Positions 6,001-12,000 of a DNA stretch of 13,022 bases are shown piece by piece (within the stretch, counting starts at the first letter, position 1; each line of letters starts with the position of its first letter). Made by a program: the position numbers. The stretch lies in IMG/VR virus record IMGVR_UViG_2534681935_000012; one strand, 5' to 3'. The stretch is from a virus. Lineage: Duplodnaviria; Heunggongvirae; Uroviricota; Caudoviricetes.

Positions 6001-9000
6001 AACGCCAAACGTGGACGGTTTCAGAGCGTATGTCAGGGCGTTTGTGCATCAGGCCAAGCCGTTTTACTTCGGAGACAACGACACGGGCTGGACGGCAGAT
6101 TTTGATTACCTGCTGAGGGAAGATTCGTTAACGGGAGTTCGGGAAGGGAAGTTTGCAGACAGGGGGATTGCATGAGACAGGATATCGAAGCTAGCGTTAT
6201 CGGTGGCCTGCTGATTGGTGGATTAACTCCAACCGCCAGTGACGTTCTGGCAACGCTGGAGCCGGAAGCGTTTTCAATTCCGCTCTACCGGAAAGCCTTC
6301 GAGGTTATTCGCAAGCAGGCGAGAAACAGAAACCTAATCGATGCGCTGATGGTTGCCGAGGCGTGCGGAGAGGAGCATTTCACGTCAATCCTGATGACCA
6401 GCAAAAACTGCCCGAGTGCCGCAAACCTGAAGGGATATGCCGGAATGGTCGCGGATAACTATCACCGCCGTCTGGTGCTGGAAATCATGGATGAAATGCG
6501 TGAACCAATCCAAAGCGGAACCATCGACGCATCGAGTCAGGCGATGGATGAACTTGTAAAGCGTCTTTCAGCCATCAGAAAGCCCCGTGACGAGGTTAAA
6601 CCTGTACGGTTAGGGGAAATCATCACTGACTACACTGACACGCTTGACAGGCGTCTGAGGAACGGAGAAGAGTCAGATACCCTGAAGACCGGAATCGAAG
6701 AGCTTGACGCTATCACTGGAGGGATGAACGCAGAAGACCTGGTGATTATCGCCGCTCGTCCTGGTATGGGGAAAACCGAACTGGCGCTGAAGATTGCCGA
6801 AGGTGTGGCAAGCCGCGTTATTCCTGGTTCTGACGTCCGGCGCGGGGTATTGATTTTCTCAATGGAAATGAGCGCATTGCAGATTGCAGAGCGAAGCATT
6901 GCCAACGCCGGGAGGATGTCGGTTAGCGTACTGCGAAATCCTGCATCGATGGATGACGAGGGCTGGGCACGTGTTGCTAACGGCATGAGTCAGCTTGCAG
7001 ATTTGGATGTATGGGTAGTCGATGCTTCGCGGTTATCGGTCGAAGAAATACGCTCAATCGCAGAACGGCATAAGCAGGAAAATCCAAACCTGTCACTCAT
7101 CATGGCGGATTATCTTGGCCTGATTGAGAAGCCGAAAGCAGACCGCAACGACCTCGCAATTGCTCACATCTCCGGAAGCCTGAAGGCGATGGCGAAAGAC
7201 CTGAAAACACCGGTTATCTCCCTGAGTCAGCTTTCGCGCGATGTTGAGAAGCGACCAAACAAACGCCCGACAAACGCAGATTTGCGTGATTCAGGAAGCA
7301 TTGAACAGGACGCAGACTCAATCATCATGCTCTATCGGGAAGCGGTATATGATGAGAACAGTAGCGCCGCGCCATTTGCTGAAATCATCGTGACGAAAAA
7401 CCGTTTTGGCTCGCTTGGTACAGTTTACCAGCGGTTCTGTAACGGACACTTTGTTGCATGTGACCAGGATGAAGCCAGACAGATTTGCACAGCATCAAAT
7501 GCACCTGCTGCGCGTGGCAGACGATATGCACAAGGGGCTGACGTATGACCATCTACATCACTGAGCTAATAGCAGGGTTATCGTTACTAATGGTTCTTAC
7601 TGTATATATTATTAAGTATATTCTTTATGCGAATAAAAAACTAATTGATCACGATGAGCTTCTGTCAACATTATCATATGACTCAGAAACAGGAATATTT
7701 AAATGGCTAAAAACAAATTCAGTAGTAAGAGTAAAAGGTAGTATTGCTGGAGGTGTTAGTGGTGGTTATATATGCATTAGTATAAATAATGTTTTGTATA
7801 AGGCGCATAGACTTGCTTGGTTCTATGTATACAAAAAATGGCCTCCTAAGTTTATTGATCATGTAAATGGGAACAGACTTGATAATAGGATTTCAAACCT
7901 AAGACTGGCAACAGAAGAGCAGAATGCAAGAAACATTGTAGGGAATAGATTAAACACATCCGGTGCAATTGGAGTGTCTTGGTATAAGCCAACTGGCAGG
8001 TGGAAGTCTTATGTTGGTTATAAAAATAAGACAATATCGTTAGGGTATTTCGATAGCAAAGAAGATGCAGCATTCATAGCAGCACTAGCAAGAAAGAAAC
8101 TATATGGAACTTATGCGAGTAAAGCACTTAATTGCGAGCATGAGCTTTTATCTCAATTTAATAATGATGAGGATAAACTTGCGGAATATCTTAAGGAAAA
8201 ATATAAAAGGACTCGAAAGCGTGTTAAAAAAAGATAAAGGCCTGCTGGTAATCGCAGGCCTTTTTATTTGGGGGAGAGGGAAGTCATGAATCTGGACAAG
8301 CAAGATGCACAAACTATTAGCTCATACATAAGGGCATCAAGACCAGATTACAAAGGTCCGGTATTCGTAGATTTATCTCGCCTTGAATAGATTTACATGT
8401 GGAAAGCAAGGTTACTTACGCATTTTGTTATTCGAACGATGACTAGCAACATTACAAAACCAATGTAACTGGAAGAGGTGAATATGAGCACACTCGCAGA
8501 CCTTATTCATGCCGATATGGCTGAAGATGGAGCAAGGCGTAATAGGTACTGGAAATCATCGAGCCTTCCAGTTTGTGAAAGATTCAATCACAGGCCAAAA
8601 CCAAAACGTAGCCGACGAGACAAAGTGTTGAAAAAACTCATGCAAATTAACATGGCTGGTTTTGTCAGATTCGTGAGTGAAACGACTAACGGTGATTGAT
8701 ATGGACGAATCAAGAAAGCAGTTTGAGGAATACGTTGCCAAAAAATTGAGATTACCATTCGAGATGATAACCGAGGCAAGAAATGGTGATAGGTACTTCG
8801 CATTTTCAAGCATGGATATTCGTCACTCCTTAAATGATTGGTGGGCTTTATGGCAGGCATCGCGAGCAGCTATTGAACTGGATATCGACTGGCCCGAATC
8901 GAATGACGACCTTTGGAAAGATGGTGAAGAAGGTGCTTATGCGATGGGTTATGAGGATGGGCGTGACAAAACGGTAATTGCAGTAATGAAAGCCATCAGG

Positions 9001-12000
9001 GCCGCAGGAATCAAAGAAAAGAATTTCGATTAAGCAAATATCACTTCAATAAATCGCTTTTAAGGCATCACAATCGCTCTGTGGTGAGGTAAGCACGTGC
9101 AAGGTATACCGATAAGCAGCGAGAATGAAAAATGCGTCAGAATGCGTTTGAGGAGGTTTTAAGAAATGAGTACGATAGCTGAGCTTGTCAGGGCTAATTT
9201 TCGTGAAGAGTTGGTGCGTTGGTATCGGTATCGTTCATCGTCCAGTTTGCCGCTTGATGAGTTGTATGAGCATTCACCTGCCGCACGACGCTATCCGCGT
9301 GACCGTGTTCTTCGACGGTTGTTCAAACTCAACAATGAGTTTCAGCGCAACAGAATTATCCGGAGTCTGGATTTTAAGTGAAGGAGTGAGCATGAGCGAC
9401 CTATCATTAACCCAGCCAAAGCTAAAAGAATGTCCGTTTTGCGGCGGTAATGCTCGTCTGTGGGTTGAGGCCGGAATAAATATTGATGTGTGGGGCTATG
9501 CAGAATGTGACCTCTGTGAAGCCAGGGTGGCATGGGCACCATCAGTTGCTGCGGCTACTGAAAAATGGAACCGGAGAGCAGGAGATGAAGCAAACCTTTC
9601 TGCTTCGCAACGAAGCAATCAGAAATAACGCCATAGACGCCATTCTCTCACTACCCATCGACGACAAGTCACCCCACGAAGTCCACGTTAAAGAACCCAA
9701 GCGCAGCAAAGCGCAGAATGACCGCATGTGGCCGATGCTGAACGATGTTTCGCGTCAGGTGCTATGGCATGGTCAACGGCTGGCGCCGGAAGACTGGAAA
9801 GACCTGTTCACTGCCCTGTGGCTTAAGACCAAAAAACTGGAGCAAAGAAGTGCGCCTGGTATCGACGGTGGCGTTGTCATGCTTGGCGTGCGTACCAGCA
9901 AAATGCGAAAGGCCAGCATGACTGAGCTTATCGAAATCATGTTCTGGTTCGGCTCAGAGCGCAACGTGCGGTGGAGTGATGACTCCCGGCGAGAGTATGA
10001 ATGGTCACAACGAAAAGGGAAGGCTGCATGACTATCAAATCAAATACGCCAGCACACGACAAGGACTGCTGGCAAACGCCGCTCTGGCTTTTTGATGCGC
10101 TGGATATTGAGTTTGGATTCTGGCTGGATTCAGCTGCGAGCGACAAAAACGCTCTGTGCGCTCACTGGCTAACTGAGGCTGACGACGCGCTAAATTCTGA
10201 GTGGATAAGCCACGGTGCAATCTGGAATAACCCACCGTACAGCAATATCAGGCCGTGGGTGGAAAAAGCCGCTGAGCAGTGCATACAACAGCGACAGACG
10301 GTAGTGATGCTTGTGCCAGAGGATATGTCTGTCGGATGGTTCAGCAAGGCTCTGGAGAGTGTTGACGAAGTTCGCATCATCACTGATGGACGGATTAATT
10401 TTATCGAACCATCGACAGGGCTGGAGAAGAAGGGAAACAGCAAAGGCTCAATGTTGCTGATTTGGCGACCGTTCATCAGTCCTCGACGGATGTTTACTAC
10501 CGTATCCAAAGCGGCATTGATGGCGATCGGGCTGGGCGTCAGGAGGGCTGCATGAGGCGACAGCGACGAAGTATCACCGACATCATCTGCGAAAACTGCA
10601 AATACCTTCCAACGAAACGCTCCAGAAATAAACGCAAGCCAATCCCAAAAGAATCTGACGTAAAAACCTTCAATTACACGGCTCACCTGTGGGATATCCG
10701 GTGGCTAAGACATCGTGCGAGGAAAACAAGGTGATTGACGTGATGATTTATTCGGGGCTATATTCCTCAAACGCCAGCAAAATCTGGCGTCGGGATTGGC
10801 GTCCTGGATAGAGACCGCGACAGATACACGCCGCGAGCGTGTTTTTTATTGTCGTATGCACGCGCACATCTGAATTATGGTGGGCTGTGTGGGGGCGGAG
10901 AGATCCGCGCCGGTCGGTTTCCCGGTTACGCCAACCCTGCACAGTTCACCACCAGACGATTGGCGTCGTCGGTGGTGAGTTATTAAGAAACCACCAGAGG
11001 GCGTCATTATGACAACTAAAATTTCTGTTGAAACTCTCTCCCCGATCACCCATAACCAGATTCCTGTTATTACCACCGAACTTTTGGCGCAGCTTTACGG
11101 CACTGAGCCGGTGCGTATTCGCCAGAATCATCATGAGAACAAAGTACGCTTCGTTGAAGGGAAACACTTTTTCAAAGTTGTTGGTAATGACCTTAAAGAA
11201 TTGCGGGTAGCTTTAAACTACTCACAAAATTTGCGGGTTACTTTAAGTAACTCACAAAATTTGCGGGTTACTTTAAGTAACTCACAAAATTTGCAACCAT
11301 CTTTAAGAGGGTTACAAATTTCCCCGAAAGCCCGCTCCCTCATCCTCTGGACAGAACGCGGCGCAGCCCGTCACGCAAAAATGCTCGAAACCGATCGGGC
11401 GTGGGAAGTGTTCGAAAAACTGGAAGACTGCTATTTCAGCCAGTGCGAGAAAAATACTGGCAAACAAGAGAAGAAGCTCAACGGGCTTTCCGCAAAAGAA
11501 ACAGACAGCCTTGTATGGCTGTGGGATTATGCCAACCGCTCACAGGCATTGTTCCGTGAGTTGTATCCCGCATTAAAACTGATTCAGTCTGGCTATTCCG
11601 GCATATGCCACGACTACGGCTATGAGTTCTCGTATATCATCGGGAGGGCGAGGGGCGTTTTAATTAATCACACGCGGGATATAGATATTTATGAGCCTGA
11701 CGGGCCGACGAACCTTCTGGCATGGGAAAGGCTTAAGAACAAAGAGTTGCCGCCTTCACTGCATCGCTACTGACAATTGACAACTTAACAAACCCAGCTT
11801 CGGCTGGGTTTTTTATTGCTGAATTTTCAATGTGAGAGGACATGACAATGAATGAGCTGATAAATAGCAATGCCATCAAAATGACAAGCATTGAAATCGC
11901 TGAGTTGGTGGGAAGCCAACACGGTAATGTCAGAATATCAATAGAACGTCTGGCAAAGCGTGGGGTGATTCAACTTCCTTCAATGCAAAAAGTTGAAAAT

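Follow-up and report, generated by a model that had tools for sequence, protein, structure and literature searches.

Two homologous 71-aa genes lie on either side of a gene for a 110-aa acidic protein in the window, the 13,022-nt stretch of tailed-phage DNA analyzed here (IMG/VR record IMGVR_UViG_2534681935_000012). This two-copy form is very probably the outcome of ordinary phage mosaicism among independent cassettes rather than a three-gene system. DUF7301-A, the 110-aa gene (a member of phrog_343), and DUF7301-B each behave as separate cassettes in the slot between tR2 and ninB.

Setting and Gene Content of the Window

The window comes from a Shiga-toxin-converting lambdoid phage, of which it forms the early right operon. 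It is 100% identical to the published Stx phages Stx2a_F349, WGPS4, and SH2026Stx1, and 99.9% identical to phage 1717. All features described here are on the plus strand. Inserted after the helicase gene and ahead of tR2 is an HNH/AP2-type homing-endonuclease-like gene (7545-8237; RefSeq HNH endonuclease, with its start at 7626) that matches the PADLOC homing-endonuclease model with E=5e-4. This gene is missing in Nil2 and lambda, and breakpoints are found at 7576 and 8234.

The boundary sequence at 8234-8284 contains a tR2-like intrinsic terminator, which the terminator scan located as a stem-loop at 8236-8263 followed by a T run. The Nil2 annotation calls it tR2 and the Sf6 annotation calls it "bsq6 boundary sequence / tR2"; it is 98% identical to the lambda sequence directly 5' of ninB, and it is where the most frequent mosaic breakpoints of the census described below are located. 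Lambda has ninB immediately after tR2 and possesses neither the DUF7301 nor the phrog_343 family. On its right side, the variable slot in the window is anchored by ninB (9585-10031; RefSeq annotation mapped from L002). A small ORF of 34 aa at 8286-8390, which lacks a RefSeq annotation and belongs to phrog_21123 (E=3e-20), travels with the DUF7301-A cassette and is found 5' of the A type in 42 of 46 unique contexts. The initial annotation of this DNA had placed Lar and Dam nearby, and both are present: the gene at 9392-9628 is a Lar-family restriction alleviation gene (Pfam PF14354 Lar_restr_allev, 37.8 bits where the cut-off is 28.6; phrog_599, E=1.5e-38), and RefSeq lists NinB and a phage N-6-adenine methyltransferase (Dam) downstream of it.

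The Two 71-aa Genes Belong to One Family

DUF7301-A (8484-8699; RefSeq WP_000105280.1) and DUF7301-B (9166-9381; RefSeq WP_000103678.1) each code for a protein of 71 aa, and the 110-aa gene starts with the ATG at 8701; the coordinates and lengths first assigned to them are correct. The proposed homology of the two 71-aa proteins is confirmed by a gapless BLASTP alignment with 25 identities over 56 residues (45%), 68% positives, and E=2e-16. Both are members of PF23975 (DUF7301), with scores of 108.6 bits for A and 91.4 bits for B where the Pfam gathering cut-off is 27 bits, and residues 1-64 of each align to positions 1-64 of the 65 in PF23975, which makes them full-length members. Both also match phrog_1785 (E=5e-35 for A and 2e-33 for B), and RefSeq already labels the two genes "DUF7301 family protein". 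The paralogs are basic (pI 10.35 for A and 10.80 for B) and the 110-aa protein is acidic (pI 4.75), as had been noted from the start. Older annotations of 933W-type phages omit DUF7301-B, and an overlapping long form of Lar is called there instead.

An alignment of 67 sequences identifies Y22, S26, L28, P29, E32, P38, R45, D46, V48, and L49 (copy A numbering) as the core residues of the family, and all are kept in both copies of the window. AlphaFold2 predicts DUF7301-A to be a helical hairpin (mean pLDDT 89.2) with helices at residues 3-25, 30-35, and 45-69; in this model the core residues gather at the elbow of the hairpin, beside a basic loop. A strong Shine-Dalgarno sequence precedes A and another precedes B. 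Median dN/dS is 0.14-0.18 in the main DUF7301 subfamilies, and two subfamilies have a higher value, 0.56. The genes are real coding genes, given these Shine-Dalgarno sites, the median dN/dS of the main subfamilies, and the AlphaFold2 mean pLDDT of 89.

A profile search of 1.84 billion representative proteins returned only 59 DUF7301 matches, nearly all of them free-standing proteins 27-111 aa in length, and no fusion to an informative domain was among them. DUF7301 is a small family restricted to Enterobacterales prophages, catalogued and uncharacterized. Its member in phage ST64T, Orf-69 (DUF7301/phrog_1785), is 64% identical to copy A and is encoded at the same site, with the replication genes on one side and ninB on the other. 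The window proteins match existing database entries, with nothing at the sequence level to set them apart; the one unusual feature is that a single phage carries two members.

The 110-aa Gene Is a Mosaic

The 110-aa gene occupies 8701-9033, with 1 nt between its ATG and the TGA of DUF7301-A at 8697-8699. It matches phrog_343 (E=1e-29), and homologues with 96% identity to its product carry PF26207 as a precomputed assignment. Relatives in phrog_343 include Sf6 gp48 (the gene 48 protein), 933W L0091, Nil2 ORF29, and ST64T Orf-86. The gene is a three-part mosaic, in which the first 10 codons are conserved, the middle is hypervariable, and the C-terminal half is conserved. The 110-aa protein accordingly has in common with phrog_343/PF26207 proteins the start MDESRKQFE, the linker WQASRAAIE, and the C-terminal half, and 933W-type alleles are 94-97% identical to its last 63 residues. 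Breakpoints around the gene lie at 8691, 8731, 8849-8851, 8876-8877, and 9038.

The linker is encoded by 27 nt (8851-8877) that recur even in alleles of the 110-aa gene that are unrelated elsewhere; against L010-type alleles they are the sole match in the gene body (96%). Breakpoints cluster on either side of these 27 nt, and WQASRAAIE is near-invariant in the alignment of homologues. The 27-nt linker is a recombination boundary. As in other lambdoid and P22-like phages with boundary sequences, such as bsq6 of Sf6 at ninA/tR2, short conserved stretches of the window (8234-8284 and 8851-8877) have unrelated or alternative sequence on either side, and breakpoints coincide with the edges of genes or domains. 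The 132-nt spacer between the 110-aa gene and DUF7301-B (9034-9165) has a fold z-score of -0.34 and no Rfam match, which points to the absence of a structured RNA or regulatory element.

Searches for characterized relatives of these proteins returned little. Against Pfam, NCBIfam, and PADLOC the paralogs matched only DUF7301, and the 110-aa protein had no match in NCBIfam, PADLOC, or a copy of Pfam that lacks PF26207; in these three collections no toxin-antitoxin or defense family matched any of the proteins. In PHROGs, A, B, and the 110-aa protein match only families of unknown function. A sequence search of the PDB with both family profiles gave 0 matches at E values up to 10, no structural relatives of the DUF7301 model were found, and neither sequence nor fold likeness to Lar/Ral, ArdA, or Ocr-type DNA mimics was found. 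The literature searched contains no mention of DUF7301, PF23975, PF26207, phrog_1785, or the RefSeq accessions, and broader searches about the nin region and anti-defense gave nothing specific to these proteins. No homologue of the three proteins has a known function. As sequences the proteins are not undescribed: they are catalogued as DUF7301, phrog_1785, and phrog_343 and annotated in RefSeq.

The Cassettes Occur Independently

Locus scans with six single-protein queries yielded a census of 235 unique contexts, in a sample dominated by near-identical prophages of E. coli and Salmonella. Gene order around DUF7301 depends on the subfamily. The A type has a phrog_343 gene downstream in 44 of 46 unique contexts. 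The B type has phrog_343 upstream in 59 of 104 and Lar downstream in 81 of 104, and the Klebsiella type has neither neighbor (31 of 31 contexts). Overall, some 60% of unique contexts have phrog_343 next to DUF7301, an adjacency seen in 4 of 9 subfamilies; the contexts without phrog_343, about 40%, include most of those of the 75-aa type. The reverse is also found, since Sf6, mEp235, and phiv205-1 have phrog_343 without DUF7301. Further arrangements are phrog_343 followed by B without A (L274 type), and A followed by NinB without phrog_343. Two DUF7301 copies occur only in the hybrid of the window type, which was found in 6 phage records and in 52 of 5426 E. coli genomes.

Over 290 loci, breakpoints were located at 8234-8284, 8691, 8731, 8849-8851, 8876-8877, 9038-9041, 9152, 9395-9400, and 9575-9584. 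They fall at gene edges or in short conserved linkers, and individual genes recur with different neighbors; 9152 and 9395-9400 are the borders of the DUF7301-B cassette. The gene content of related prophages, as seen in the 235 unique contexts, is thus one of separate cassettes and not of a fixed trio.

These data bear on whether DUF7301 and phrog_343 form a two-protein unit, with the basic hairpin acting on an acidic partner as inhibitor and modulator or in a toxin-antitoxin-like manner, so that in the hybrid phage either of two basic proteins could partner the one acidic protein. The isoelectric points are complementary (10.4 and 10.8 against 4.75), and the distance of 1 nt from the stop of A to the ATG of phrog_343 makes translational coupling likely; in ST64T the overlap between orf-69 and orf-86 is 1 nt. 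Among 73 unique contexts of the A-type and ST64T-type clades, 71 have phrog_343 directly downstream, and the gap of ≤1 nt in these clades is also compatible with a functional link. However, in the B type phrog_343 comes first, with the 132-nt spacer in between, and mosaic breakpoints fall exactly between the genes (8691 and 9038-9152). Each partner is also found alone: the contexts without phrog_343 include all those of the Klebsiella type and most of the 75-aa type, and Sf6, mEp235, and phiv205-1 carry phrog_343 by itself. The lack of toxin-antitoxin or defense matches in Pfam, NCBIfam, and PADLOC, and of a promoter of its own, is likewise unfavorable, and a two-protein unit is considered improbable. 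A type II toxin-antitoxin pair in particular is disfavored. Such a pair would be an obligate bicistron of fixed order, but here the order flips between subfamilies and each gene occurs alone; no promoter of its own was found in 7400-10100, nor any sequence or structural match to a toxin or antitoxin.

The proposal in the initial annotation that a duplicated protein flanks its partner as one module is not sustained either, since the two-copy form is present in one lineage only and is attributed to recombination, and DUF7301 and the 110-aa family can each be found in the absence of the other.

Origin of the Two-copy Arrangement

The genes for A and B have no nucleotide similarity detectable by blastn at word size 7, and dS between them is saturated. 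Because of these two observations an in-place duplication is not accepted; A and B are anciently diverged members of one family. Their equal length of 71 aa, same orientation, and collinear similarity are what a recent tandem duplication would leave, with the middle gene carried along or inserted later. The absence of nucleotide similarity and the saturated synonymous sites oppose such an event, as does the identity of each copy (99-100%) to single-copy genes that have different flanks in many other phages. The nucleotide comparison and the single-copy parental arrangements refute a recent tandem duplication, whose probability is put at next to nothing.

Two parental types can be recognized among sequenced phages. 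WGPS6 matches the window at 99.5% over 7001-9038 and then diverges, and Nil2 matches it at 99.1% over 8849-10600. From these matches, the zone common to both types, 8849-9038, is the inferred crossover interval. The slot after tR2 is a string of independently exchangeable single-gene cassettes, namely the small ORF with DUF7301-A, phrog_343, DUF7301-B, and Lar. One parent would have been a phage with A followed by phrog_343, and the other a phage with phrog_343 followed by B and then Lar. A homologous crossover in the shared C-terminal half of phrog_343 (8849-9038, which includes the 27-nt linker) very probably joined them and left one DUF7301 gene on each side of the 110-aa gene. The usual lambdoid exchange swaps cassettes, whereas the exchange in the window put two homologous cassettes into one genome. 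The order of events could also have been the opposite, with the hybrid ancestral and the single-copy forms derived from it by deletion or replacement. This order is disfavored because the hybrid is rare and restricted to one lineage of O157:H7 Stx phages.

Expression and Possible Functions

No plus-strand promoter-like (sigma-70-like) sites were found in 7400-10100. Because of this and of their position just 3' of tR2, A, the 110-aa gene, and B are probably delayed-early genes, dependent on N antitermination, transcribed from pR, and dispensable like other nin genes. Lambda likewise encodes small proteins between tR2 and Q (NinD, NinE, NinF, and NinH), which are dispensable to that phage and are produced only once N antitermination has occurred. 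They have no sequence relationship to the proteins described here, and with the DUF7301 and phrog_343 profiles lambda ORFs stay below 5 bits. The nin5 deletion illustrates the dispensability of the lambda nin region, which a genome-wide essentiality study reportedly covered.

Early in infection DUF7301 may bind a nucleic acid or else an acidic protein of the host or the phage; this is a guess of rather low probability. A more doubtful view is that DUF7301 proteins are counter-defense or host-takeover factors, with A and B as specificity variants against different host targets; stacking of A and B beside Lar and Dam would then broaden the host range of the Stx phage. The neighboring genes are rich in DNA-protection and recombination functions (Lar, NinB, Dam), an argument of guilt by association. 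Lar accompanies the B type in 81 of 104 contexts, but this linkage is measured on near-identical sequences and may reflect simple co-inheritance. The family is small, fast-diverging, and phage-restricted (59 representatives in 1.84 billion proteins), and dN/dS reaches 0.56 in two subfamilies, yet purifying selection on the main subfamilies is of an ordinary strength (0.14-0.18). The searched literature is silent on these proteins, and many nin-region genes are without a defense role. A still bolder proposal, and an unlikely one, is that DUF7301 represents a new class of small, basic helical-hairpin effectors that at an early stage of infection neutralize a host defense or DNA-processing factor, alone or with the acidic phrog_343 protein, and that the O157:H7 Stx lineage stacked two variants beside Lar and Dam, which would give it a wider counter-defense range.

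The arrangement itself matters little, as it is textbook modular recombination of sequences that match published Stx phages and are already in Pfam and PHROGs. DUF7301, being compact, confidently folded in prediction, and located in a slot where Lar and Dam also accumulate, would be an inexpensive family to include in accessory-gene or anti-defense screens. If an anti-defense or accessory role were true, the Stx phages with two copies would offer a natural case of stacked variants.

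Gene Content and Probable Expression of the Early Right Operon

By its ORFs and by database comparisons, the window comes from a Shiga-toxin-converting phage of the lambdoid group and comprises its early right operon. Replication gene O (5354-6175) and a DnaB-type helicase gene (6172-7548) are followed by an HNH endonuclease gene that ends at 8237. The two 71-aa genes, DUF7301-A (8484-8699) and DUF7301-B (9166-9381), flank a 110-aa gene (8701-9033). Lar (9392-9628) lies 3' of these three genes, followed by NinB, a phage Dam methylase, NinE, and then antirepressor genes. Over 1.4 kb (8240-9640), the sequence has 100% identity with Stx2a_F349, Stx2a_WGPS4, and SH2026Stx1 and 99.9% with phage 1717. 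Of 5426 complete genomes of E. coli, 52 have a prophage that is identical over this stretch; among those listed, most are O157:H7. In the otherwise identical prophage of E. coli strain 7784, RefSeq records the replicative helicase gene (933-2308 of that locus) as frameshifted; given this frameshift, that copy may be replication-defective.

DUF7301-A, the 110-aa gene, and DUF7301-B are located directly downstream of tR2. A consensus scan of 7400-10100 found no σ70-like promoter on the coding strand, and the 132-nt spacer before DUF7301-B folds unremarkably (z = -0.34) and matches nothing in Rfam. The three genes are probably delayed-early, transcribed from pR in dependence on N antitermination, by analogy with the lambda nin region.

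Other elements were found elsewhere in the window. On the + strand, Rfam isrK (10771-10847, 74.7 bits) and C4 antisense RNA (10873-10956, 66.7 bits) immediately precede the gene for the Ant antirepressor (11009-11773); judging from sequence, this is a putative P1/P7-type, immI-like RNA control of ant within a Stx phage. Inside ant, a 30-bp tandem repeat (11201-11294, 3.1 copies, 92% matches) encodes a repeated ten-residue peptide. The lambda cIII thermoregulator element (RF01804, 88.5 bits) is at 889-947 on the - strand. The O gene contains an A-rich tandem repeat (5775-5814, period 14, 2.6 copies), in the place that the ori iterons occupy in lambda.

The DUF7301 Proteins and the 110-aa Protein

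Both 71-aa proteins belong to DUF7301 (PF23975; 108.6 bits for A and 91.4 bits for B, cut-off 27 bits) and to phrog_1785. The middle protein belongs to phrog_343/PF26207, whose members include Sf6 gp48 and 933W L0091. Pfam, NCBIfam, and PADLOC matched no further family. RefSeq labels the two 71-aa genes "DUF7301 family protein" and the 110-aa gene "hypothetical protein". The initial annotation had recognized none of the three proteins. The searches gave no informative lead on function, but the sequences and families were already catalogued in Pfam, PHROGs, and RefSeq.

The described similarity, layout, and charge were borne out. The two 71-residue proteins align without gaps (BLASTP, 25/56 identities, E = 2e-16), and the 110-aa gene starts with an ATG at 8701, a single base after the stop codon of A. 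Both paralogs are basic, with a pI of 10.35 (A) and 10.80 (B), and the middle protein, with a pI of 4.75, is acidic. A good ribosome-binding site lies ahead of A and of B. Homologs with 35-64% identity are present in prophages of Salmonella, Klebsiella, Citrobacter, Kluyvera, Franconibacter, and Serratia, and the main DUF7301 subfamilies have a median dN/dS of 0.14-0.18. A and B are genuine coding genes, a conclusion that their confidently predicted fold (below) also supports. An alternative-frame ORF of 147 aa (9185-9628, + strand) overlaps DUF7301-B and extends into Lar; this longer version is the one annotated in older records (933W L0092, Nil2 ORF31), from which DUF7301-B is absent. The DUF7301 frame is conserved in phages lacking Lar, which argues that the long form is spurious. 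An unannotated 34-aa ORF (8286-8390) matches phrog_21123 (E = 3e-20) and is present with DUF7301-A in 42 of the 46 unique contexts of that cassette.

AlphaFold2, with a 67-sequence alignment, confidently predicts a helical hairpin (mean pLDDT 89; helices 3-25, 30-35, and 45-69). In this model the conserved residues (Y22, S26, L28, P29, E32, P38, R45, D46, V48, and L49) group at the elbow, beside a basic loop, and the helix ends are variable. DUF7301 had no significant structural match in PDB or BFVD, and neither its profile nor that of the 110-aa family has a sequence relative in PDB. Searching 1.84 billion representative proteins with the profile gave no more than 59 DUF7301 members; nearly all of them stand alone (27-111 aa), and no fusion was informative. 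None of the papers searched names DUF7301, the 110-aa family, or their accessions. On sequence and fold, these proteins fall outside the known anti-restriction families. A counter-defence role for DUF7301, beside Lar and Dam, is possible from its neighborhood. Our tentative guess, from the model, is that DUF7301 may be a dispensable early accessory protein whose elbow binds nucleic acid or an acidic protein. That DUF7301 is a novel family of small effectors, with variants stacked in this phage, is improbable.

Origin of the Two Copies and Independence of the Three Genes

A and B had been described as duplicated. They have no nucleotide similarity (blastn, down to word size 7), their synonymous divergence is saturated, and each is 99-100% identical to single-copy genes of many other phages with other flanks. 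These findings eliminate a local duplication in this phage; A and B are therefore ancient relatives united in one phage.

The census comprised 235 unique DUF7301 contexts in nine subfamilies at 80% identity. A phrog_343 gene is downstream in 44 of the 46 A-type contexts and in all 27 of the ST64T type; it is upstream in 59 of 104 B-type contexts and in 3 of 23 of the 75-aa E. coli type, and adjacent in none of the 31 Klebsiella-type contexts. Lar is downstream in 81 B-type contexts and in none of the other four types. Citrobacter and Kluyvera members have no full phrog_343-family gene alongside, and Sf6 (gp48), mEp235, and phiv205-1 carry the 110-aa family but no DUF7301. One locus type (L274) has tR2, the phrog_343 gene, and B, with no A. 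The window-type hybrid is the only form with two DUF7301 genes at one locus, one and the same module in 8 unique contexts. Contexts in which one family lacks the other, the varied orders, and the single hybrid together indicate that the three genes are cassettes exchangeable one by one, and the proposed three-gene module finds no support. Toxin-antitoxin membership is also rejected: pairing is not obligate, there is no own promoter, and there is no family similarity. A functional link between DUF7301 and the 110-aa protein is left room solely by their frequent adjacency, with hardly any gap between the genes in the A and ST64T clades; as each family occurs apart from the other and the cassettes exchange separately, we give such a link little probability.

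In Klebsiella (L137, 2111-3001), Citrobacter (L140, 2432-3001), and Kluyvera (L141, 2315-3001) prophages, the start codon of DUF7301 and the stop of a larger gene before it overlap; this larger gene encodes a DUF551-type or unannotated protein. The Citrobacter upstream protein weakly matches (11.8 bits) the phrog_343 profile in its N-terminal part ("FE..W ... W.A.RAA"), which suggests that this part may be a shared promiscuous phage domain.

Probable Recombination at Boundary Sequences

Stx2a_WGPS6 is 99.5% identical to 7001-9038 (helicase, HNH, small ORF, DUF7301-A, and the complete 110-aa gene) and beyond 9038 diverges into a different ninB. Nil2 is 99.1% identical to 8849-10600 (C-terminal half of the 110-aa gene, DUF7301-B, Lar, NinB, and Dam); left of 8849, similarity is confined to the end of the helicase gene and to the tR2 boundary. 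The two parental types share 8849-9038, and one homologous crossover within this segment would yield exactly the window arrangement.

Across 290 related loci, the starts and stops of similarity to the window at ≥90% identity cluster at 8234-8238, 8278-8284, 8691, 8730-8731, 8849-8851, 8876-8877, 9038-9041, 9152, 9395-9400, and 9575-9584, that is, at gene edges and two points inside the 110-aa gene. This gene is a three-part mosaic, with the first ten codons conserved, the middle hypervariable, and the C-terminal half conserved. Its 27 nt at 8851-8877 (encoding WQASRAAIE) are the sole gene-body segment common to otherwise unrelated alleles and thus behave as a boundary sequence. At the left boundary, 8234-8284 contains a tR2-like terminator; the Nil2 annotation names this sequence tR2, and that of Sf6 names it "bsq6 boundary sequence". 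An HNH/AP2-type, homing-endonuclease-like gene (7545-8237; RefSeq start 7626) sits exactly within the conserved helicase-stop/tR2 boundary. Its flanks (7545-7576 and 8234-8290) are contiguous in lambda and Nil2, so it looks like a free-standing endonuclease insertion.

The left boundary is 98% identical to lambda, where ninB follows directly; relative to lambda, all of ~8291-9584 is cargo inserted at the tR2-ninB junction. The A/110-aa/B arrangement is a standard result of the boundary-sequence-mediated mosaicism of lambdoid phages.
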